36,508 nt of DNA from Promethearchaeota archaeon (GCA_016839745.1 JAEOTS010000128.1:1-36508); one strand, 5' to 3'; numbered from the stretch's first letter, positions 5,484 to 32,632 are shown. Made by a program: numbers and translations. Notes: generated by a model from the letters alone, not told the origin.

Positions 5484-6692
5484 CTATTTGGATACCTTCT
5501 TTGCAAATTTATACAAGAATATTAAAACTACAAGAAGTATTGCAGAAACCATAAAAATGATGATGTATACTAAGGAAATTCCTCCAAAATTAAAAAAGGG
5601 TTCTAGAGTTATAGGAACGAAAGCTATTCCAATAAATTGAAACGCCGTTGTTAATCCCGCGAGAGCACCACGTCTTTCTAGAGATAAAGTTTGGCTATAG
5701 AACATTACTAATGTTATTAATATACCTCCGGCTAGACCCATGAAGGTAAGACCTATGGAAGTGAACGGAAGCGCTTCGAAACTGTTATTACCGAAGAGTA
5801 TTAAAATTATGTCTGCGATAAATAATGAAATCAATCCCATTATCATAGTAAGTTTTACACTTTTTTTCTTAATAGTGAATCCGGTTAAAATACCACCTAT
5901 AAAGCCCATTACTCCAAATAAGGCAATTACTAATCCTGAAATCGCCGGTGGTATCGAGGCTATAGAACGCGAAGTCCAGATTATAGTTGCAATAGAGGTA
6001 TGTGAAAGTAAAAAAGCTGAGATAACCAATAAGATAACTGGTAAACGACGAATTTCTCGGGCGATGTGAGAGAAAAATGTTCGAATTCCATCATCACTTT
6101 TAGTGACAGATTGACTCTTTCTTAATGTAAAAATAATTATGATTCCTAATACAGTAATAACCAAAAATATTATGTATAAATACCTCCAGCTTACATTGAT
6201 TATTTGACCTGCAAGTAACGGTCCCAAACCAACTCCTATATTAGCAACTGCACCTAGCAAGCCTATTTTTTTAGAAATTTTCGGTCCAGGAGTGATATCC
6301 GTAAGCAAAGCTATTAATACAGGATTGACGAAACCGAAACCAATACCAGCTAAGACATTTGCAATAATAAATACTATTAACGAAAATGAAAATGTTGCTA
6401 TAACCATTCCAATTGCAAAAACAGATAAACCTAAAAGAATCACGGGGAACCGACCTTTCGTATCTGAAATAGCGCCTGAGAATAGTTGAACTATGGCAAA
6501 TGGGAACATGAATGATGGAATTGCAATCAATACTGCATTTTGAACGATTGAAAATTCTACTGAAAGTACAACATATAATACTAAAATAACATTGCCAGTT
6601 AGAGGTCCCAACGCAAAAAGGACAAAGATAATTACCTCTGCTAATACGAAAGTTTTCTTAGGTTCTACACTCAAGATATATCGTCTATTCAA
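5484..6692 (-). CDS. MFS transporter (drug/metabolite efflux-like)
   Basis: About 12 hydrophobic segments; motif A GAISDTKGR; motif C-like GLGPLLAG; TTG start. Confidence 0.85.
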   Translation of the reverse strand: MNRRYILSVEPKKTFVLAEVIIFVLFALGPLTGNVILVLYVVLSVEFSIVQNAVLIAIPSFMFPFAIVQLFSGAISDTKGRFPVILLGLSVFAIGMVIATFSFSLIVFIIANVLAGIGFGFVNPVLIALLTDITPGPKISKKIGLLGAVANIGVGLGPLLAGQIINVSWRYLYIIFLVITVLGIIIIFTLRKSQSVTKSDDGIRTFFSHIAREIRRLPVILLVISAFLLSHTSIATIIWTSRSIASIPPAISGLVIALFGVMGFIGGILTGFTIKKKSVKLTMIMGLISLFIADIILILFGNNSFEALPFTSIGLTFMGLAGGILITLVMFYSQTLSLERRGALAGLTTAFQFIGIAFVPITLEPFFNFGGISLVYIIIFMVSAILLVVLIFLYKFAKKVSK

Positions 6693-6778
6693 TTTTTAGC
6701 AAATATACTATAAAAAATTAGTCTCTAATATTAAACTCTCTGTTATTAAAAAATAAAAAAAAAGGATTATATTTAGAT

Positions 6779-7252
6779 TTACGATACATAAACCGCTATC
6801 TGCGAGAAGAACGTTGTAACGATTATAACAAATAGAATTAGCCCAGCAAGTATAAGGTAGATACGCCTCGCTTTTTCGTCAAATTTATCGTTTAAAGCAA
6901 AACTCAAAAACGCTATTGCAATAAAAAACATGCCAATATTAACCCCAATTCGAGCAATATTGCCTACTATGACTACTTGGTATTCCATCCAATAAGATAT
7001 AAGATTAGCTCGTTCAATTTTTACGATGTAATCGTTATACCCGTACAACCCTTGCATGTAATTCATTTCGTTTTGTTGGTTTTCAAGGAGTAACCATGTA
7101 GAGGCGTTATCTGCAATTGATTTACTTATCATGAGTACCGTGCCAAAGACTATAGCTACTAATAGACCGTATATTAAGAACTTAGTAGCTCTTTGCTTAT
7201 CCATCATTGGTAACATGTCATACAAACTTCCTTTTCTCTCTTCTGTCCCCAT
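6779..7252 (-). CDS. Hypothetical multi-pass membrane protein (~3 TM)
   Basis: 157-aa ORF with three hydrophobic stretches, 6 nt downstream of the 7259-7927 gene. Confidence 0.75.
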   Translation of the reverse strand: MGTEERKGSLYDMLPMMDKQRATKFLIYGLLVAIVFGTVLMISKSIADNASTWLLLENQQNEMNYMQGLYGYNDYIVKIERANLISYWMEYQVVIVGNIARIGVNIGMFFIAIAFLSFALNDKFDEKARRIYLILAGLILFVIIVTTFFSQIAVYVS

Positions 7253-7258
7253 TTTTTA

Positions 7259-7927
7259 TCACCTTAAGTAATTTGCTTTTAAAACTGATATTAATGCTAA
7301 CATTACGTAAACAATTATAATGGCAGCACCTATAAATATGAAAAGATTGTTTAGAGTTTCTCCTGGACCGTCTACTTTTATTGTGATATCGAAAGCAACA
7401 TCTGTAACGGAAGGAGGACCCGAATTAGAGCCATAAACGATAACATAATAATCACCTGGCCAAGAAACCAACGAATCACCCACTCTATCCCCCATAAATT
7501 CTATGTATAAATAAATTCCATTCGAGGGTAACGATAAAGAATTCGCACCAAATGTGCTTCCCGCGGGCGATGAACCCCAACCAAACTCAGAATATACAAA
7601 CTGCAAGCCTGAAGGAGGAGGGTTATCCAAACTGTGTTCTCGGTCGTATACGCTTTTAGCAATGATCCTAATTGTGACCGATGAATTTGGGTAAAATTCA
7701 GAAATTTCGATTATCAGTTTTTGATCTTTACTTAATGTCACTTGTTGAGCGAACGCATTTCTTATACTTGCGCTGCTATCTTCTTGAATAACTACAGGTT
7801 TTCGGTCGTAAATAGTTACTTTATCTAGTAAAATCCCAAAAAAAGGACCGAGTACTAGACATGCTAGACCTATTCCAATGATGATGTAAGCGGTTTTCTT
7901 TTTTAAAAGTCGACTAATTTTTAACAT
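7259..7927 (-). CDS. Hypothetical membrane protein: TM / beta-rich extracytoplasmic domain / TM
   Basis: N- and C-terminal hydrophobic helices flank a Ser/Pro/Gly beta-rich domain containing PGDYYVIVYG. AAGGTG precedes the ATG. Confidence 0.75.
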   Translation of the reverse strand: MLKISRLLKKKTAYIIIGIGLACLVLGPFFGILLDKVTIYDRKPVVIQEDSSASIRNAFAQQVTLSKDQKLIIEISEFYPNSSVTIRIIAKSVYDREHSLDNPPPSGLQFVYSEFGWGSSPAGSTFGANSLSLPSNGIYLYIEFMGDRVGDSLVSWPGDYYVIVYGSNSGPPSVTDVAFDITIKVDGPGETLNNLFIFIGAAIIIVYVMLALISVLKANYLR

Positions 7928-8088
7928 GTAGACACCTTTATAGACTTATTTTTTTTTAAATTAAATTCTGGTCAAATAAAAATAGGGCGTTTCGAAATAA
8001 AAATTTGAGTTTGATAATTATTAACAGATGAATTAAAGCTCGAAATTGATGAATGTTTTAATAAAAAAAAAGAAATAATTGTAAACTC

Positions 8089-9501
8089 TTATTTGTTTGA
8101 AAAAATCTTCTTAGATTTTTTGGATTTAATGAAGAAGTAATAGAGATTAATTAGAATAAAGAAGGCGATGAGTGCTATTTGAAAAGGCAACCAATCGGTG
8201 ATCATAGAGAGACCGAGTAAAGTTAGTAGCAGGTTTGTAGTTATGTCTTTAAGAAATTCACTTTTCTCCATTGATTGTTCTAGTTTTTCCTTGATTATCC
8301 GGTCAGTGTCGATATCTTGCAGGTATTCATCTATTAACTTTTTCAATTCTTCGTCTTCTTTTAGGTAATTTAATGCTTTCGTTGGATTAATTATCCAGTC
8401 TTCCAAGATAGCATTTGAAATAAACGATTTAGTCTGAAACTCAAAAGTAGCATCGAAGAATTTATAAAATGATTCTATATCGAATTTCTCGTCTGACATT
8501 TCGTTTGAAATAAGAGATATTTTTCCATAAATCAGCTTACTATCGAATTTCTGAGGAAAATCGTATAAAATTCTTAAAGCGTTTGTAAATTTAGTCTCAT
8601 AGAATGCGCCTTTTTCTTTAGCCCTGAACACTGGAACGACGGGTATAAACATAGTATCGTTCTTATTTATTATCGTTAATACTTCAGATTTCCTCAAACT
8701 GAGTTTAATCAATTCTTCAATTAGTTTCCTTCCTATTTGAATAATGCGATAAAGAGATTTGTTGGCGTCTTTGTCTTTTGTTTGGCATTTTAGTATTAGT
8801 TTATCTTCGTCGAAATACCCATCCATATCGTCATCAATTATGTGAAAACTACTCGTTTTTTCGTACTTTTTATCGACTTTTAACTTAAATCCATCAAAAT
8901 CAGCGTATGGATATAGACTACTAAGTAAATGATGAGGATTCATATCTCTTCCCGGAACTTTAAAGACGACATATATTTCATTATTTCCATTAGGGATGCT
9001 ATACTTCTTCCAATCAAAATCCAGTTTAAACTCTTTAGGTCTTAGCGTTTTTTTATTAAAATCAGTATAATAAACGTGAGCCCCCTCATCAATAGAAAAG
9101 TGTACCTTTTCGCTAAACCGCAATCTTTTCAATACATTTCCTATTAGAGGTATTTCGGGATTTAACACGTTCTGAATTAAATTTATTCGGAAAGTGTAGT
9201 CTTTGATCCCTGAATTGAGAAGTAAATTGGTCAAATCATATTTAGAAACAACTTTACCCTTCCTTAATACCGTCAAAATTTTCTGTCGTAATAAATCTCG
9301 ATGGGCAGCTTTCTGTTTTTTTTCTAATTCGCTTTCCAGTTTTTTTTTATCTTTAAGTTCTTTAAGCTCGCTTTTTCTCCTTTCTATTTCCTCTTCTGAT
9401 AAGCCTTCCGTCTTCTCTTCTTCTGTAATTATTTCCTCTTCTACATTTTCGTCATAAATAATAAATTTTGATTTAGGAGTTTTTTCGCTCATGTTAAACA
9501 A
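8089..9501 (-). CDS. Hypothetical protein: charged coiled N-terminus, putative winged-helix domain, C-terminal 2-TM anchor
   Basis: E/K-rich N-terminus; RQKILTVLRKGKVVSKYDLTNLL..LIGNVLKRLRFSEKVHFSIDEGAHVYY; hydrophobic hairpin and Lys-rich tail. Start may be ATG 9492. Confidence 0.75.
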   Translation of the reverse strand: MFNMSEKTPKSKFIIYDENVEEEIITEEEKTEGLSEEEIERRKSELKELKDKKKLESELEKKQKAAHRDLLRQKILTVLRKGKVVSKYDLTNLLLNSGIKDYTFRINLIQNVLNPEIPLIGNVLKRLRFSEKVHFSIDEGAHVYYTDFNKKTLRPKEFKLDFDWKKYSIPNGNNEIYVVFKVPGRDMNPHHLLSSLYPYADFDGFKLKVDKKYEKTSSFHIIDDDMDGYFDEDKLILKCQTKDKDANKSLYRIIQIGRKLIEELIKLSLRKSEVLTIINKNDTMFIPVVPVFRAKEKGAFYETKFTNALRILYDFPQKFDSKLIYGKISLISNEMSDEKFDIESFYKFFDATFEFQTKSFISNAILEDWIINPTKALNYLKEDEELKKLIDEYLQDIDTDRIIKEKLEQSMEKSEFLKDITTNLLLTLLGLSMITDWLPFQIALIAFFILINLYYFFIKSKKSKKIFSNK

Positions 9502-9638
9502 TTCATTAGGTGTTTCAGAATAGTATTGAATAATATTATTTGAATTTTTAGAAAAATCGAAAAAATGTGATACAAATAAAATTCATGTTTAATTCTTTAT
9601 CGTAATTAATTTTGCTAATATTATGTTGAGAATTGCTT

Positions 9639-10895
9639 ATGAAAACTGATGAGTCGTGTTCTGATTATATGTTTAATTTCATAGATACAATCTGTAAAAA
9701 GTTTGGACCAAGATATTCGTGTAGTGAATCTGAAAAAAACGCAAATATTTGGATAAAAGAAGAACTTGATGAGTTTTGTGACGAAACATTTATCGATGAG
9801 TTTGAAACTCGACCTGCCCTGTATCCTCAAGGTTTTATCAAGGTAGCGGGATTCTTGGGAGGCATTTCTCCGTTATTTATGCCTTTAAAATTCCCGTTTC
9901 CGATAATATCTCTAATTCTTGTGATCCTCGGTATTACTGTGCTCTATAGCGAGTTATTTCTAATGAAAGAGTGGATTGGGTTTCTTTTTAAAGCTAAAAA
10001 ATCTACAAATGTGTTTGGTGTAATAAAACCTACACAGGAAGTAAAATTTCGTATCATATTTGAAGGTCACACCGACAGTGCTAAAGAAATGAATATTGCC
10101 AGCTATAAGCCCCGAGCGCGCCAGATAATAGGGATAACAGGACTTTACTTTTTATTTCATACAATTATTTTTTCATTATGGAAATTCATTGCTCAATTAG
10201 TTTCGGGAGTGTCCATTGTAATAGTGAATTGGGGAGTCTTTTCTATGACGACAATAGATTTGATTTACTTTATTCCGCTCGCTATAATTTACCCCTTTTT
10301 CATCTTGTTGTTAAAAGGTTTCTTAGGAAAATCGGTTGTATTAGGAGCAAACGATAACCTATCTGCCTCTGCTGTTGCTGTCGCAATAGGGAAATACCTG
10401 AGCAAAAATAGACCGAAAAATGTGGAAGTTTGGATTGGCTCACAAGGAAGCGAAGAAGTAGGTGATAAAGGAGCTAAAGCTTTCGTTGAGAAGTATGGGA
10501 AAATGGGAAAGCTTGATAATTCTTATACCGTGGTGTTAGAATGTTGTGGAGCCGCAGAAGATATAGTTTTAATTGAAAAAGACATGCACCGAGCAGTTTA
10601 TAATACGGAAATCAATAATATGCTTATAAAAGCCCATGAGGAAGCAAAGAAAGAAAATCCTGACTTATTAAATCTACGAACTGGAAGTCTTAAGATTGGA
10701 GCATGTGATGCTTGCCGGTATATTCACGAAGGATTCAAAGCAGCAGCTTTAATGGGAATGGAACACGCAAAAAACAAAGCAGTTAACTGGCATTCTGTTA
10801 ACGACTCTCCAGAAAACATAAATAAAAAGATTTTGGGTGATTTTCTAGATGTTTCGCTCAAATTTGTTGAATTAGTTGATAACAAATACAATTAA
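9639..10895 (+). CDS. M28-family Zn peptidase with transmembrane insertions
   Basis: GHTDS, GANDN, GSEE and WHSVNDS metal/catalytic motifs with hydrophobic inserts between them. Start is ATG 9639 or TTG 9633. Confidence 0.85.
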   Translation: MKTDESCSDYMFNFIDTICKKFGPRYSCSESEKNANIWIKEELDEFCDETFIDEFETRPALYPQGFIKVAGFLGGISPLFMPLKFPFPIISLILVILGITVLYSELFLMKEWIGFLFKAKKSTNVFGVIKPTQEVKFRIIFEGHTDSAKEMNIASYKPRARQIIGITGLYFLFHTIIFSLWKFIAQLVSGVSIVIVNWGVFSMTTIDLIYFIPLAIIYPFFILLLKGFLGKSVVLGANDNLSASAVAVAIGKYLSKNRPKNVEVWIGSQGSEEVGDKGAKAFVEKYGKMGKLDNSYTVVLECCGAAEDIVLIEKDMHRAVYNTEINNMLIKAHEEAKKENPDLLNLRTGSLKIGACDACRYIHEGFKAAALMGMEHAKNKAVNWHSVNDSPENINKKILGDFLDVSLKFVELVDNKYN

Positions 10896-10929
10896 AAAAA
10901 AGAAAAAACGAAAAATTAGGTCTAAATTG

Positions 10930-12381
10930 TTATTTTAATCCTAATTCTCCTAATTTTACTTGGGTTGCATCGATTTTTTCAGGTGTAAGGTCATAATATT
11001 TCCAAAAGAAAAAAGCACCAATAAAGATAAATATAGCCGGGATTAACCCTAAATGTATTTGGATTCCCACTAATGCTTCTGGTGGTTGGATACTTGGATC
11101 TCCACCTTCAATAAATCCCGTTAAAGTATGAACGATAGCAAAAGTTATAGTCTGAGCTATTATTCCTATACGAGCAAAAAACTGCGAAAATCCGCTATAT
11201 ACTCCCTCTTCACGTCTTCCTGTAATTACAACAGATTCATCAATTACATCTGACATAACTGGAAAGATCATAACCCAGAAACCTCCAAGAAAGATACCCC
11301 ATAAAAACATGACAGCAATAACAGCCCAATAATTTGTTACGAAAAGCAGTGGTAAAGCAAATACTCCTAAACCAATAGCAGAAATTAACATAATCTTCTT
11401 GTTATTATTTACTTTATGAGAATATTTAACCCAAACTGGTGATGAGACAATCACTCCAACAAGAAAGGAAGCAAATATTAACGTAGCCATTAAATTAACT
11501 GATATGCCCGGAACTTTTTCTATCACATACCCAACTTCATAATTTAGAGAATTCTGCATCGTAACAACCAGACATTGATACAAAGTATATATTACCATGT
11601 ACACTAGGAAGGATTTTTGCTTTAATGCAATAACTAAGGACTTAAAAAAGGACTCTCTTTCTGGATTTTTTTCGTAAGTTTCCAGATATTTTCCTACAAG
11701 ATCTTTATCTTCTCGAAATCCAGGGATTGCTAAAAGCATTCCAATCAGACCTATTAAAGCAATTACCACTCCTTGTACAATAAATGATTGTAAAACTATA
11801 TCTGGAGCTGCAGTGCCGGGATATTTAAATACTAAAGGAGGTACTAATGCTCCTAACGCTACTCCAATTACACCGATTGGGATATAGATTCCACTAGCGA
11901 CTCTTCGTTCTTTGTTGGACCTGTGTTTCTCAGGAAACAGTGCCATAAAGTTTACAAAAAAGAGTGAATGAAAAGTATCAAATAAACACATTGTCAAAAG
12001 CATCCATGCAAACAAAAACCACGCACCGGATGTGGGATCTGTCACGGGTGGCATAAATACAATTATGTAACTGGCACATAAAGGTATTCCTCCAAGTAAC
12101 AACCAAGGAAATCGCCTACCATATTTCTTTGTAAACTTAAATGGACGGTTAGTTAAGTATCCAATAAAAGGATCGTTGACCATATTATACAAGGCAAATA
12201 GAAATGTCGCTAAAAATATGACCCATACTTCTAGACCTACCACAGCTTCGTAATAAAAGAATACTGTCCCCGTAAATGCCATATTTAAGAATTCTCTTGC
12301 CGCACTACCCGAACCATAAGATGCCATATTCAATTTACTATGACGAACTTCTAACACATCTTCTTTCATTGCTAATACCAA
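10930..12381 (-). CDS. GPH/MelB-family (MFS_2) glycoside:cation symporter
   Basis: NDPFIGYLT, KYGRRFPW, SDVIDE..TGRREEGVYSG and YDLT motifs; about 12 TM. Start may be ATG 12369. Confidence 0.9.
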   Translation of the reverse strand: MVLAMKEDVLEVRHSKLNMASYGSGSAAREFLNMAFTGTVFFYYEAVVGLEVWVIFLATFLFALYNMVNDPFIGYLTNRPFKFTKKYGRRFPWLLLGGIPLCASYIIVFMPPVTDPTSGAWFLFAWMLLTMCLFDTFHSLFFVNFMALFPEKHRSNKERRVASGIYIPIGVIGVALGALVPPLVFKYPGTAAPDIVLQSFIVQGVVIALIGLIGMLLAIPGFREDKDLVGKYLETYEKNPERESFFKSLVIALKQKSFLVYMVIYTLYQCLVVTMQNSLNYEVGYVIEKVPGISVNLMATLIFASFLVGVIVSSPVWVKYSHKVNNNKKIMLISAIGLGVFALPLLFVTNYWAVIAVMFLWGIFLGGFWVMIFPVMSDVIDESVVITGRREEGVYSGFSQFFARIGIIAQTITFAIVHTLTGFIEGGDPSIQPPEALVGIQIHLGLIPAIFIFIGAFFFWKYYDLTPEKIDATQVKLGELGLK

Positions 12382-28242: not shown

Positions 28243-29688
28243 ATGCCAATTGGTATTAAAAGTTATGGTGCTTATCTACCTAAATACATGCTATCCAGAG
28301 AACTTATTGCGAAAGCATGGGATTTTCCCTCAGTTCCAGGGACTAAAGCAGTAGCGATGATAGATGAGGACAGCTTAACAATGTCCGTAGAAGCAGGACT
28401 CGATTGCTTGGCGGGAATTGACCCAAAAACAGTTGATGGAATCTTCTTTGCTTCAACAACACAAGTATATACCGAAAAGGATTCAGCTTCATTAATCGCT
28501 ACCGTACTCGATATGAGAGCTGATATCATTACCGCAGATTTCACGGATTCTACTAAAGCAGGCACAACAGCCTTAGCTAGGGCTGCTGATACAATCAAGG
28601 CTAACAAAGACATCAATAGTATCTTGGTAGTAGCAGCTGATACTAGAAAACCTGAACCCTCAACTATGTGGGAATTTGGGTTTGCAGATGGTGCTGCAGC
28701 TATACTCGTTGCGGATGAAGAAAATATTCCAATTTCGATTGATGATTATTATTCAGTCTCAGCGAATGTGACTGGACCGTGGAAAAGAGCGGATAAAGAT
28801 GAGTTCATCAGAACTTTTGAAGTTAAAATGGACGCGAAGTTTTATGTGGAAAGCATCACAAAAGTAATGTCGGAAATCTTGAAACGCAATAATTTAAATC
28901 CTTCCGAAGACATTGATATTGCAGCTTATTACTATAATAACCCCCGAATGCACAGTAGAATCTCTAAAATAATGAAGTTTGGCCAAGGAGTCGCTCAAAA
29001 TAGCTTATTCTTTCAAGTAGGAGACACAGGGACGCCAATGCCCTTCATGCTCCTCATTGCCAGTTTACGAAGACCTAAACCAGATGCCAAAATTATTATG
29101 GCTGGCTTTGGAGATGGAGCAGATGCGATTCTAATGCACATTCGAGATAAAGATGGTGTTAAAGATATTGGTAAAGGAAGAATGGGTTTTATCGGTCACC
29201 AAAAATCGATGGCCCTCCTCAAGAATTACAACAAGTTCGTTGAGTCTAAAGAATTACTCCATAAAGACAGATATACACGTAAGAGCTCAGCTGTTTTAAT
29301 CTGGCGCGACACTGCTTCAGTTTATAAGTGGTATGGGGTAAAATGCAAGAATTGCGGTGCCGTGCAATATCCAGACATGTCACGAGCTTGTTCCGTTTGT
29401 AGGGCTGATGATCAACTTGAAAGCGTGAAACTCGAAAAGAAAGGAGAACTCTTTACATATACCCTTGATCACTTGGTTGGTGGAGCATATCTCAACACAC
29501 CTGTCCCTCGATGCGTGATAGACCTCGATGGTGGTGGTAGAGTGCTCGTCAATATGACTGAAATTGAAAATCCCGAAGAAAACGTCAAAATTGGGATGAG
29601 AGTTGAGTTGACCTTCAGAAAAGAACACGAAGGTGCTGAATTTAAAAATTATTATTGGAAATGTCGACCCGTGAGGGGGAGACCTTAA
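28243..29688 (+). CDS. HMG-CoA synthase/KAS III-like domain (catalytic residues degenerate) fused to DUF35 Zn-ribbon + OB-fold
   Basis: GIKSYGAYLP, DEDSLTMSVEA, KAGTTAL, DGAAA, VGDTG, GFGDGADA; C-terminal CKNCG..CSVC, GELFTYT, IGMRVELTFR, YYWK. Confidence 0.88.
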   Translation: MPIGIKSYGAYLPKYMLSRELIAKAWDFPSVPGTKAVAMIDEDSLTMSVEAGLDCLAGIDPKTVDGIFFASTTQVYTEKDSASLIATVLDMRADIITADFTDSTKAGTTALARAADTIKANKDINSILVVAADTRKPEPSTMWEFGFADGAAAILVADEENIPISIDDYYSVSANVTGPWKRADKDEFIRTFEVKMDAKFYVESITKVMSEILKRNNLNPSEDIDIAAYYYNNPRMHSRISKIMKFGQGVAQNSLFFQVGDTGTPMPFMLLIASLRRPKPDAKIIMAGFGDGADAILMHIRDKDGVKDIGKGRMGFIGHQKSMALLKNYNKFVESKELLHKDRYTRKSSAVLIWRDTASVYKWYGVKCKNCGAVQYPDMSRACSVCRADDQLESVKLEKKGELFTYTLDHLVGGAYLNTPVPRCVIDLDGGGRVLVNMTEIENPEENVKIGMRVELTFRKEHEGAEFKNYYWKCRPVRGRP

Positions 29689-29702
29689 AGGAGGTAATAA
29701 AT

Positions 29703-30890
29703 ATGGTAAGACATGGTATTAAAGACAAAGTCGCAATTATCGGTTGCGATATGACAAAATATGGAGAACTGTGGGACAAGTCGCAACACGACCTACTTTT
29801 CGAAGCGTTCCAAAGCGCAATAAAAGACGCCGGAATCACTAAGGATGAGGTTGATGCGAGCTGGATTGGAATATTTTACTATTTTACTGGATTATCAGGT
29901 GCAATGGTAGAAGATATCCTAAGATTGGACGGTAAACCTGCCACTCGAGTGGAAAATTATTGCGCTTCTGGCATGGACGCGTTTCGTAACGCCTCATTTG
30001 CTGTTGCTTCCGGAGCGTACGATATTGCTCTCGCTTGTGGAGTAGAGAAACTAATGGACGAAGGAGGCAGTGGATTGCCAGGCTTTACACAATTCGGACA
30101 TCCATTATATCCTACGCCTTCCGCACCCGCAATGTTTTCGATGGCAGCAACTAGATGCTTCCACGAATTTGGTTGGACAAAGGAGGATCTTGCTCGAGTT
30201 GCCGTAAAAAATCATGATAACGGTTCTCATCATCCAAAAGCACACTTTCGAAGACCGATTACAATTGATGCTGCGATGAAAGCCCCCATGATTGCTGACC
30301 CTCTAGGCCGCTTCGATTGTTGTGCGATGTCGGACGGAGCAGCCGCGTTGATTCTTACAAGACCAGAACTCGCAGAGTCTTACGCTCATGCAGATGATTA
30401 TGTATTAGTTAAAGCCAATGCGATTTCAGCTCACACCAATTTTCCATGGTACATCCCTTCAAATGGACCCGGGGCAGATTTTACATCTTTTCCATCAACG
30501 GTAAAAGCAGCGCAATACGCATATAAAGAAGCAGGAATCACCGATCCAAGAAAGCAAATTGATGCCGCAGAAGTTCACGACTGTTTTACGATCACAGAAC
30601 TCATAAACTGTCAGGATTTACAATTCTGCGATAGAGGTCAAGCAGCTGAAGAGCTTAAGAATGGTACATTCAATTGGGATGGAGAAACTGCCGTTAATCC
30701 TTCTGGAGGGTTAAAAAGTTTTGGTCACCCGATTGGAAGTACTGGTTGCAGGATGCTTACGGAGATTGCTAAACAAGTTCAAGGACGCGCTGAAGGAAGG
30801 CAAGTACCCGACGCCAAGATTGGTTTGGCTCATAACCTCGGCGGTGCGTTTAGCGTTTGTTCCACGACCATATTAGGTCAACGAGATTAA
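29703..30890 (+). CDS. SCP2-type/archaeal thiolase (acetyl-CoA acyltransferase family)
   Basis: VAIIG, VENYCASG, GVEK, KNH.NG, SDGAAA, EVHDCF, NPSGGL..GHPIGSTG, HNLGG. GGAGGT RBS at 29690-29695 supports ATG 29703. Confidence 0.92.
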   Translation: MVRHGIKDKVAIIGCDMTKYGELWDKSQHDLLFEAFQSAIKDAGITKDEVDASWIGIFYYFTGLSGAMVEDILRLDGKPATRVENYCASGMDAFRNASFAVASGAYDIALACGVEKLMDEGGSGLPGFTQFGHPLYPTPSAPAMFSMAATRCFHEFGWTKEDLARVAVKNHDNGSHHPKAHFRRPITIDAAMKAPMIADPLGRFDCCAMSDGAAALILTRPELAESYAHADDYVLVKANAISAHTNFPWYIPSNGPGADFTSFPSTVKAAQYAYKEAGITDPRKQIDAAEVHDCFTITELINCQDLQFCDRGQAAEELKNGTFNWDGETAVNPSGGLKSFGHPIGSTGCRMLTEIAKQVQGRAEGRQVPDAKIGLAHNLGGAFSVCSTTILGQRD

Positions 30891-31048: not shown

Positions 31049-31993
31049 ATGAAAAAAAAATATAGATTTGGAAAACCTAAAAAGAGAAGGTTTGACGACC
31101 TTAAGGAATTCTACAAGGTTCTACAAGGTAAATCTGATCTTGGGGAAGAAATTGATAATCTCGTAGATAAAGCTGAGAAAATGGCAACGGATTACGAATT
31201 AGCACTGGAGGAAGGGAGACTAAAAGAAGAATCACCATATCGTAAGATAATTGAAATATACAAGCGAATAATAGATATTTTTATTTCAAAAGGGTGGAAA
31301 GAGCAAGCATTAATTTATGCTGATCAAATTAAATTTTATCAAGATGAATGGGAGAGAGACAAGAAGCTGCGTAAGTTAGAGTATCAAAAGATTCAGAGAC
31401 AAAAAGACTATAGAGATTCATTAAAAGTTAAAGCGATAACTGAAAATAGAAGACGATACAACTACGATGATACTAGGGGAGAAGGATTTCCCTATATAAT
31501 AAGAAGGTTCGAAGATCGCGAGGGAATAGCGGGTGTGATCATTTGCGATCTGAATGGTAGACCGATTGATTCGAACATAGATATCGATATAAGCGAAAGC
31601 ACATCAGCTGATATTACATCCTTAATTAGAATTGGAAAACAACTCGTTGAAGCGTTGAAAGAAGGCGGACTCAAATTCATACGCTTAGAAACCTCGAAAG
31701 GAGAAATTATGATTGCTTTAGAGGAACAACTTATTTTAATCATTCTGAAAGGCGAAAAACGCGCGAGAAAAAGATTTGGGGGCGATCGCTTTCCATATCC
31801 TTACATTTTCACACATCCAAGACCGCCGGACGATTTCGCAGCAGCAACTCAAGTCCAAGTTCGTGCTCCCTTTTTAAAAGAAAAAGAATCCGAAGGTGAA
31901 AATAATTGTCAGTATTGCGGTATGAAGCTTACGAAAGAGGAACAATTAACTCATTCCTGTAAAAAGAAACCTGATAAAAATAATAAATTATGA
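31049..31993 (+). CDS. Helical N-domain + Roadblock/LC7 domain (dynein light chain roadblock-like) + shared Pro/Tyr-rich Zn-knuckle tail
   Basis: EGIAGVIICDLNGRPIDS..LKFIRLETSKGEIMIA..LIILK; tail PYPYIFTHPRPPDDF..CQYCGMKLTKEEQLTHSC. Confidence 0.85.
   Translation: MKKKYRFGKPKKRRFDDLKEFYKVLQGKSDLGEEIDNLVDKAEKMATDYELALEEGRLKEESPYRKIIEIYKRIIDIFISKGWKEQALIYADQIKFYQDEWERDKKLRKLEYQKIQRQKDYRDSLKVKAITENRRRYNYDDTRGEGFPYIIRRFEDREGIAGVIICDLNGRPIDSNIDIDISESTSADITSLIRIGKQLVEALKEGGLKFIRLETSKGEIMIALEEQLILIILKGEKRARKRFGGDRFPYPYIFTHPRPPDDFAAATQVQVRAPFLKEKESEGENNCQYCGMKLTKEEQLTHSCKKKPDKNNKL
31793..31974 (+). repeat. Direct repeat copy 1 (coding, C-terminal module)
   Basis: Aligns to 32404-32582 with one 3-nt indel and 28 mismatches over 179 aligned nt by manual count (~84%). 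Confidence 0.95.
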
Positions 31994-32586
31994 GTGGTGT
32001 AACTATGGTTGACGATAGTTTAGATGATTTTTTGAAAAAACTACTCGGAGCAATCCCCGAAGTAAAATCTGCCGCTATTGTATCTGCTGAAGGACTTCCA
32101 ATAGCATCTGCACTTCCGCAAGGTGTCGACGAAACGAGAATCGCAGCAATGACTGCAACCTTACTCTCTTTATCTGAAAAGGCAATTATAGAGATTAAAA
32201 AAGGAGATTTTGATCAGTTGTATATAAAAGGGAGCGAAGGGTATCTCTTGGTAATGCAAGCAGGTCAAAACGCCGTTTTAATCTTATCTACTACGAGGGA
32301 TGTTAGACTTGGATTAACTTTATTAGAATTTAGAAGATTTTTTGAAAAATATGCGCGATTTGGATACTTTAAGGATGATGATGATGATAGTGAGGATTAT
32401 CCTCCATATCCTTATATTTTCACTCATCCAAGACCCCCTGACGATTTCGCAGGGGCAGCTCAAGTACAAGTTCGTGCCCCCTTAAAAGAAAAAGATTCAG
32501 AGGAGAAAATTTCTTGCCAATATTGCGGTATGAAGCTTACTAAAGGAGAACAAGCTACTCATTCTTGTAAAAAGAAGCCTGAATAG
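31990..32586 (+). CDS. Roadblock/LC7 (MglB/LAMTOR2-like) domain + shared Pro/Tyr-rich Zn-knuckle tail
   Basis: SAAIVSAEGLPIASALP..RIAAMTATLLSLSEK..LYIKGSEGYLLV..AVL..LGL. ATGA overlap with the upstream gene; alternative start 32005. Confidence 0.9.
   Translation: MSGVTMVDDSLDDFLKKLLGAIPEVKSAAIVSAEGLPIASALPQGVDETRIAAMTATLLSLSEKAIIEIKKGDFDQLYIKGSEGYLLVMQAGQNAVLILSTTRDVRLGLTLLEFRRFFEKYARFGYFKDDDDDSEDYPPYPYIFTHPRPPDDFAGAAQVQVRAPLKEKDSEEKISCQYCGMKLTKGEQATHSCKKKPE
32404..32582 (+). repeat. Direct repeat copy 2 (coding, C-terminal module)
   Basis: See copy 1; 50 of 59 aligned residues are identical. Confidence 0.95.
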
Positions 32587-32632
32587 AAGTTGGCAACAAA
32601 GAATTCCTTTTACTTTTTTTGATTAATCCATT

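Follow-up and report, generated by a model that had tools for sequence, protein, structure and literature searches.

The stretch analysed here, 36,508 nucleotides of a Promethearchaeota archaeon genome (GCA_016839745.1 JAEOTS010000128.1:1-36508; hereafter the window), encodes two adjacent open reading frames (ORFs), ORF A and ORF B, that are coupled through an ATGA sequence at 31990-31993 in which the TGA stop codon of ORF A overlaps the ATG of ORF B. Each of the two products carries a Roadblock domain and ends in a shared tail that includes a proline/aromatic motif and a predicted zinc knuckle (Table 1). We refer to this tail as the tag; it is a real, selected module that is mobile between genes and that has not been described as such. 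In the public protein collection, the ORF A protein is represented by an entry of its own (P0001).

Table 1. Features of the ORF A-ORF B region, with positions counted along the window.
Feature	Position	Strand	Description	Evidence
ORF A	31049..31993	+	314 amino acids: helical N-terminal region, A-type Roadblock, C-terminal tag	ORF list, Pfam Robl_LC7
Roadblock/LC7 domain of ORF A	31499..31747	+	residues 151-233	Pfam Robl_LC7, E 2.6e-10
C-terminal tag of ORF A	31784..31990	+	residues 246-314: acidic/Arg lead-in, motif, spacer, knuckle, basic end	tail profile, E 5e-41
Proline/aromatic motif of ORF A	31793..31837	+	PYPYIFTHPRPPDDF	read from sequence
Predicted zinc knuckle of ORF A	31907..31960	+	Cx2Cx11HxC, residues 287-304; aligns with C4 zinc ribbons	
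ORF B	31990..32586	+	198 amino acids: B-type Roadblock and C-terminal tag	ORF list, Pfam, AlphaFold2, Foldseek
Roadblock domain of ORF B	32008..32358	+	residues 7-123: helix, 2 strands, helix, 3 strands, helix	AlphaFold2, Pfam, Foldseek
C-terminal tag of ORF B	32374..32583	+	residues 129-198: acidic run, motif, spacer, knuckle, KKKPE end	tail profile, E 1e-39
Proline/aromatic motif of ORF B	32404..32448	+	PYPYIFTHPRPPDDF	read from sequence, codon alignment
Predicted zinc knuckle of ORF B	32515..32568	+	Cx2Cx11HxC, residues 176-193; C176, C179, G180 and C193 invariant in alignment	
T-rich tract (T4, then T7)	32608..32620	+	within the 46 nt that separate ORF B from the convergent GNAT gene	read from sequence

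Codon alignment of the two tails spans 60 codons with a single one-residue gap and contains 50 identical residues (83%), with 83.9% identity at the nucleotide level (BLASTP E of 7e-38 for the A-B pair). The tails agree in full over their first 16 residues (PYPYIFTHPRPPDDFA) and at the C, C, H and C positions of the knuckle, and the substitutions in 13 of the 23 differing codons are synonymous. The figures put forward in a first-pass annotation of this DNA (50 identical residues, about 84% nucleotide identity, 13 synonymous changes) therefore hold to within one codon, 22 differing codons having been counted there. Estimation of synonymous (dS) and nonsynonymous (dN) divergence by the Nei-Gojobori method yielded a dS of 0.655, a dN of 0.096 and a dN/dS of 0.146. 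The combination of this dS with a clearly non-neutral ratio points to an old copy under purifying selection at the protein level, as the annotation had proposed, and not to an artefact of assembly.

The Roadblock domains of the same two proteins are far less alike than their tails (21% versus 83% identity, with 17 of 81 aligned domain residues identical), which bears out the contrast noted previously between divergent domains and near-identical ends. Both domains exceed the 23-bit cut-off of Pfam Robl_LC7 (PF03259), at 40.3 bits for ORF A and 68.2 bits for ORF B (residues 12-99, E 5e-19). On a tree of tagged Roadblock domains, A and B fall in different clades that are separated by a long branch with full support, and the ORF A clade is well supported (Shimodaira-Hasegawa-like approximate likelihood ratio test, 100) and lies apart from the B-type Roadblocks. 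ORF B, the only one of the two to be folded with AlphaFold2, presents the alpha-beta(2)-alpha-beta(3)-alpha arrangement of the Roadblock fold (H7-21, E25-32, E37-41, H48-69, E76-80, E85-90, E95-101, H107-123) with predicted local distance difference test (pLDDT) values above 90. Foldseek searches with this domain returned Roadblock structures from Thorarchaeota and strain MK-D1 as best matches (7f8m, 9jue and 7yh1; E 6e-13 for 7f8m) and also recovered MglB. The domain superposes on 7f8m, the MK-D1 RB 7yh1 and Roadblock3 9jue with target-normalised template modelling scores of 0.84-0.89 and 27-38% identity. These three structures are dimers; members of the family pair, as homo- or heterodimers, through the central helix and an edge strand, and a heterodimer of the A and B Roadblock domains is plausible from the coupling of their genes. 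The solved Asgard Roadblock chains, at 116-121 residues, roughly equal the Roadblock domain alone in length, whereas ORF B adds the tag.

The tag is not restricted to this gene pair. The source genome (3.5 Mb in 192 contigs, 89% complete) harbors four full copies, of which two lie in the window and two in adjacent genes on another contig (C116:10663-12814, minus strand, loci L003/L004), the latter pair showing a tail dN/dS of 0.19. One gene of this second pair encodes a protein of about 430 residues with a receiver domain, a coiled coil, an unknown domain and the tag; the other encodes a 241-residue protein with no Pfam match, composed of an N-terminal domain (IPGT.YRIQL..INGKW) and the tag. 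Thirteen tagged proteins bear that N-terminal domain, in some cases joined to a GTPase or gelsolin-like domain. Within the source genome, the proline/aromatic motif is confined to the four tagged proteins and never occurs without the knuckle.

A profile of four tails, searched against 1.84 billion (1.84e9) representative proteins, produced 164 matches at E<=1e-3 and 100 at E<=1e-10, and about 140 protein clusters hold the full module. The whole module is present in 134 of the 150 best matches and ends at most nine residues from the C-terminus in 132 of those 134, so that its position, which the first-pass annotation had left to be tabulated, is C-terminal. Pfam assignments on the best 150 matches comprise Robl_LC7 (22), Ras (15; Roc 12, Arf 11), Response_reg (7) and Gelsolin (6), and iterative searches expanded these host classes to Roadblock (38), gelsolin-like (29), GTPase (25), receiver (13) and the C116a-type N-domain (13), together with about 45 proteins with unknown domains. 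Hosts combining GTPase with Roadblock or GTPase with gelsolin domains also exist, and the public annotations of tagged proteins name the host domain only. The earlier view of a portable module borne by unrelated proteins is thus upheld by at least five recognisable host domain classes, and unknown ones besides, in about 140 clusters. None of the outcomes that had been set against that view (restriction to two genes, neutral dN/dS, identity with a known domain) fully held, and it is only the knuckle half of the tag that maps to a named family. Separately, a 513-residue metagenomic protein (P0022) contains, besides a full C-terminal tag, an internal copy of the motif alone (..YPYPYNFKPPGPPDDF..) that has no knuckle; two tagged genes may have fused here, or the internal copy may be a tag in decay.

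Relatives of the tail fall in the Promethearchaeota/Promethearchaeia (Loki-type Asgard archaea). Among 400 Asgard genomes, the full module is found only in the window's own family and, therein, in two genera, where it is present in 16 of 42 and 19 of 54 genomes, respectively (35 of 96 together), and it is absent from all 304 genomes outside. At least 53 copies were identified in these 35 genomes, or about one to four in each, and the copies per genome are lower bounds because at most 15 candidates per genome were scored. A broader profile recovered knuckle-only matches to ordinary zinc ribbons throughout the phylum. Weak matches of apparently full length in other families (G091, G083 and G040) lack the motif; they are zinc ribbons of the ordinary sort at the C-terminus, and the sequence upstream of them is unrelated. 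The confinement of the tag to two genera, set against the phylum-wide occurrence of knuckle-only ribbons, makes it look like a lineage-specific elaboration of a common C-terminal zinc ribbon.

Residue conservation, computed over 157 non-identical tails, revealed a consensus of five elements. An acidic run is followed by the proline/aromatic motif ([FY]-P-[YF]-P-Y-[IV]-F-K-P-P-x-P-P-[DG]-D), then by a variable region in which a Q is conserved, then by a charged spacer and finally by the knuckle with its basic end (C-x-[YH]-C-G-x2-L-x7-C-H-x-C-x-K-K). In the motif, the prolines reach 97-100% conservation (P14 100%, P17 99%, P8 98%), level with the cysteines (C43 and C46, 100%), and other motif positions are conserved at 90% (Y9), 95% (I/V), 83% (F) and 92% (D). 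Conservation of K62 and K63 is 73-86%. In the ORF A knuckle, C287, C290, G291 and C304 are nearly invariant among 150 relatives.

The zinc ribbon of most relatives has the classical Cx2Cx10Cx2C form; among 150 relatives, 59 match Pfam PF13240 (E<=1e-3). In the subtype found in the window, the third Cys is replaced by Thr and the adjacent His is kept (T-H-S-C versus C-H-V-C in relatives); this His is present in about 75% of all tails, C4 forms included. The window knuckles (CxxC ... T-H-x-C) score below every Pfam zinc-ribbon threshold and do not match PF13240, and the alignment is continuous from C4 to C2HC forms. This continuity, together with the 59 PF13240 matches, indicates that the window knuckles are homologous to PF13240 ribbons but derived, and the knuckle would be expected, from its sequence, to bind one zinc. 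The previously suggested resemblance of the Cx2Cx11H spacing to ubiquitin-binding UBZ fingers did not withstand this comparison: given that the His is already common among tails and that T-H-S-C aligns with C-H-V-C, the Cx2Cx11HxC knuckle is best read as a derived zinc ribbon. As a UBZ-type finger it was also rejected on its last ligands, which are HxC (CxxC in most relatives) and not Hx3-4[HC], and on its model, which has two short strands and, unlike a beta-beta-alpha C2H2 or C2HC finger, no ligand-bearing helix. Pfam scans of the window ORFs and of the 150 relatives detected no UBZ family. The statement that the module has no named family stands in part: the knuckle falls in a generic zinc-ribbon family, while the proline/aromatic motif and the composite module are not covered by any model.

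Two further proteins of the source genome carry zinc-knuckle-like elements. A 228-residue acidic/basic protein (C93:64082-64801, plus strand; L005 973-1659) contains CxxC-x9-H-x3-C knuckles and matches the tail profile at E 6e-4; its last knuckle ends in ...SCPKKPE, like the end of the tag, but the protein lacks the proline/aromatic motif. On the same contig, a 510-residue actin-fold protein (C93:46103-47632, minus strand) has an insertion with three CxxC...CxxC zinc-ribbon-like units.

A profile search of the PDB yielded only weak matches, consisting of knuckle-only C2H2-finger noise (best E 0.006) and a stretch of Lamassu LmuB (E ~0.01), which suggests that the tail has no solved relative, and the ESM Atlas returned no usable match. 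AlphaFold2 modelled the tail alone with a mean pLDDT of 64, without packing and with the two knuckle strands as its only secondary structure. In full-length ORF B, the mean pLDDT in blocks of ten residues is 46-51 over residues 131-170 and 74-79 in the knuckle. The models hence predict that the tail is flexible and makes no packed contact with the Roadblock domain, and high conservation coupled with predicted disorder is what would be expected of a ligand that folds on its partner.

Several lines of evidence bear on the movement of tails between genes. C2HC and C4 knuckles are both found on every major host class, and both types appear within the A-type clade as well as within the B-type clade of the Roadblock tree, which forces at least three changes. 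Tail type does not follow the host-domain tree, in agreement with the shuffled module envisaged in the first-pass annotation. For 46 of the 95 tails with a known host, the nearest tail resides on a different host class; in the remaining 49 it resides on the same class, versus 27 expected under shuffling, revealing that inheritance with the host also occurs. Comparison of ORF B with its ortholog in a sister genome (G249) gave a dS of 0.61 in the Roadblock domain and 0.62 in the tail, and the ORF B tail is closer to that of ORF A (83% identity, dS 0.66) than to that of its own syntenic ortholog (70%). Furthermore, a rare T-H-P-R-P-P variant of the motif is common to three of the four tails in the source genome, 7 of about 26 loci examined contain tagged genes side by side, and the neighbour's tail ranks among the top five of 156 in five of eight neighbour comparisons. 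Together, the tree discordance, the cross-host nearest tails, the likeness of the A and B tails, the common variant and the adjacency of tagged genes point to repeated transfer or homogenisation of tails within one genome. Judged from these sequence patterns, the results support the notion of the tag as a portable module in the evolutionary sense.

One locus of another genome (L023; G263:C30:1-12000) contains three tagged genes within 5.6 kb, with C2HC and C4 tails both present. A multi-pass membrane protein and a 387-residue protein are encoded between the tagged genes, and the same order of membrane protein, 387-residue protein and tag recurs in locus L012.

Upstream of the A-B pair (28243-30890), two ORFs that overlap by 34 nt code for a thiolase and for a condensing enzyme containing an OB/zinc-ribbon domain of the ChsH2 type, a pair that we take to resemble the archaeal acetoacetyl-CoA thiolase/HMG-CoA synthase pair of the mevalonate pathway. 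Downstream of ORF B lies a convergent gene for a GNAT acetyltransferase, and the T-rich tract in the intervening gap is a possible archaeal terminator for the pair. No GTPase gene adjoins the A-B pair. The syntenic block of the sister genome (L029, C50:13000-25000; 6021-11112) comprises the same genes as the window for a 343-residue protein, a GNAT protein, the condensing enzyme and the thiolase, followed by the ORF B ortholog, which comes directly after the same thiolase gene. ORF A is missing from this block, which identifies it as a lineage-specific insertion or loss.

On these grounds, we lean towards a reading of the tag as a bipartite docking element that binds a common untagged partner or site, and it is the docking function and the existence of that partner that we infer. 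In this scheme, A and B would be co-transcribed as a pair of Roadblock proteins of the MglB/LAMTOR type, each ending in a flexible docking tag of about 65 residues made up of the acidic lead-in, the near-invariant [FY]P[YF]PY[IV]F-[KT]-[PH]-P-x-PP-[DG]-D segment, a charged spacer of some 20 residues, a one-zinc mini ribbon and the basic end. The motif would bind in extended conformation to a surface on the common untagged partner or site, and the predicted zinc ribbon and basic end would provide a second contact. Tagged regulators, as well as the two tails of a Roadblock dimer, would in this manner be brought to the same place. A more specific version, in which the tag acts as an address label gathering Rab/Arf-like GTPases, Roadblock regulators, gelsolin-like actin regulators and receivers on a single hub (cytoskeletal, membrane or linked to the endosomal sorting complex required for transport, ESCRT), is a tentative one that we hold to be possible but doubtful.

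Several observations weigh against a docking function. The surroundings of tagged genes in 24 loci show no recurrent untagged gene family other than paralogous GTPase, Roadblock and gelsolin genes; the recurrent neighbours in these loci (TPR-like repeat, repeat-rich surface-type, helicase-like and zinc-finger proteins), judged by sequence alone, look like common unrelated Asgard families. No WW, SH3_1, UEV or BRO1 Pfam domain was detected in the 89%-complete source genome, in searches that for the most part lacked a working positive control. For BRO1 (PF03097), neither the source genome nor the control genomes returned a match, so that the earlier suggestion of a YPx[LI] motif recognised by ALIX-family proteins receives no support from a search that had no working positive control. 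Profilin-like and ubiquitin-like genes are present in the source genome. With 16 near-invariant residues, moreover, the conserved segment is much longer than a typical linear motif, and it could instead fold with a second tail or with the ribbon. Finally, the patchy distribution and low copy number of the tag, which occurs in about a third of the genomes of its two genera and in none of the 304 other Asgard genomes, fit an accessory function and not core localisation machinery.

The length of the conserved segment also bears on a second reading, in which tails bind one another, for instance through motif-to-ribbon strand exchange, and join co-encoded proteins, such as A with B or the C116 receiver protein with its neighbour, into one complex without a third partner. 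Such homotypic assembly would accommodate a segment that is long for a simple peptide ligand, the frequent adjacency of tagged genes whose tails tend to be close relatives, and the unpacked motif of the monomer prediction. We nevertheless consider it unlikely, since many genomes show only one full copy, Roadblock domains dimerise by themselves (structures 9jue and 7f8m) and one genome presents C2HC and C4 tails side by side, at L023.

The conservation of K62 and K63 in the basic end raises a further option, namely that the ribbon and basic end (CKKKPKK or CGKKV) anchor the protein directly to acidic lipids or to RNA/DNA. On this account, the tag would take the place of the polybasic/prenyl tail of eukaryotic small GTPases, and it does occupy the position of the Ras/Rab membrane-targeting tail on 25 GTPase-containing proteins; in addition, no C-terminal cysteine lipidation signal was reported for the GTPases of MK-D1 (PMC10933270). 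The basic patch, however, amounts to 2-4 residues in most members and follows a strongly acidic region, the best-conserved part of the tag is the proline/aromatic motif, which is not of a kind that binds lipid or nucleic acid, and an amphipathic or hydrophobic segment is missing. Both the anchor itself and its equivalence to a prenyl tail are accordingly improbable.

A role in regulated turnover or processing, with the tag as a C-terminal degron or as a recognition site for a protease or modifier that co-regulates a few signalling proteins, would agree with its C-terminal, flexible and exposed disposition in the predictions and with the small number of tagged regulators per genome. We regard this role as very unlikely, because known C-terminal degrons are short and need no zinc knuckle, and because the 24 loci contain no conserved protease or modifying enzyme in the neighbourhood. 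A functionless local duplication or assembly artefact confined to two genes, which the 84% nucleotide identity between two adjacent gene ends might suggest, is already refuted by the divergence of the tails (dS 0.66, dN/dS 0.15), by the four copies on two contigs and by the occurrence of the module in some 140 clusters and 35 genomes.

Asgard genomes encode eukaryote-like GTPases, Roadblock/longin proteins and actin regulators by the hundred, and to our knowledge almost nothing is known of the cellular sites at which these proteins act or of their assembly; the GTPases among them have been noted in published work to be without lipidation tails. A tag common to exactly these classes offers a concrete handle on the question, as a bait for a common receptor, and from the proteins that bear it one can predict which regulators share a site of action. 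In addition, the tag displays domain shuffling and tail exchange within a narrow lineage. If the address-label version of the docking reading were true, the tag would represent a primitive form of C-terminal targeting without lipid, a counterpart to that of eukaryotic small GTPases. Its reach is limited, with few copies per genome in two genera and absence from most genomes even there, and the tag probably represents an accessory solution specific to this lineage, as opposed to a feature ancestral to Asgard archaea or eukaryotes.

Among known systems, the C-terminal tails of eukaryotic Ras/Rab proteins are analogous to the tag in that they occupy the same position on small GTPases and consist of a flexible linker followed by a short basic targeting element; like them, the tag is common to GTPases and to other proteins that would have to meet in one place. 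The tag differs from them in lacking a CAAX or CC lipidation signal, its terminal cysteines forming a predicted metal site, and in occurring also on Roadblock proteins, actin regulators and receiver domains. The reported absence of terminal cysteines from the MK-D1 GTPases (Tran et al. 2024, PMC10933270) agrees with the narrow distribution of the tag. The knuckle half, in turn, resembles Pfam Zn_Ribbon_1 (PF13240; also Zn_ribbon_3, PF13248, and DZR, PF12773), whose Cx2C-G-x9-Cx2C-G pattern is that of most knuckles in the family. PF13240 has neither an associated upstream motif nor an assigned function, whereas in the tag the motif is obligatory, and the window knuckles depart from PF13240 in the change of the third Cys to Thr, presumably with the adjacent His as ligand. 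No description of a module combining PYPYIF/PPxPP with a ribbon was found in the literature, subscription-only papers lying outside the search.

The closest parallel is the "Zn domain" of Loki2DGel and MKD1-2DGel (Akil et al. 2022, Commun Biol 5:890, PMC9433394), a Loki-restricted and exclusively C-terminal domain reported on gelsolins and on unrelated multi-domain proteins, for which no F-actin binding was seen and which the authors guessed to bind an unknown cellular feature. Like the tag, it is a small, lineage-specific C-terminal zinc module on gelsolins and unrelated proteins. Identity of the two was ruled out, as the tail profile does not match the 2DGel tails even at E<=10. The two near-identical 2DGel paralogs of the source genome (C74:18861-19892, minus strand; C23:1187-2245, plus strand) end in the published Zn domain, CxxC-x32-CxxC, with a long Tyr-bearing loop and without PYPYIF/PPxPP, whereas the tag combines a Cx2Cx10 spacing with an obligatory upstream proline/aromatic motif. 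The gelsolin hosts differ as well: the tag sits on gelsolin-like proteins with one domain, of the type of Thor ProGel (7c2f), and the Zn domain on two-domain 2DGel proteins. The different spacing, the absence of the proline/aromatic motif and the lack of a profile match set the tag apart from the Zn domain as another C-terminal zinc tag of broadly similar kind, which fits the known theme of C-terminal zinc tags in Loki-type archaea.

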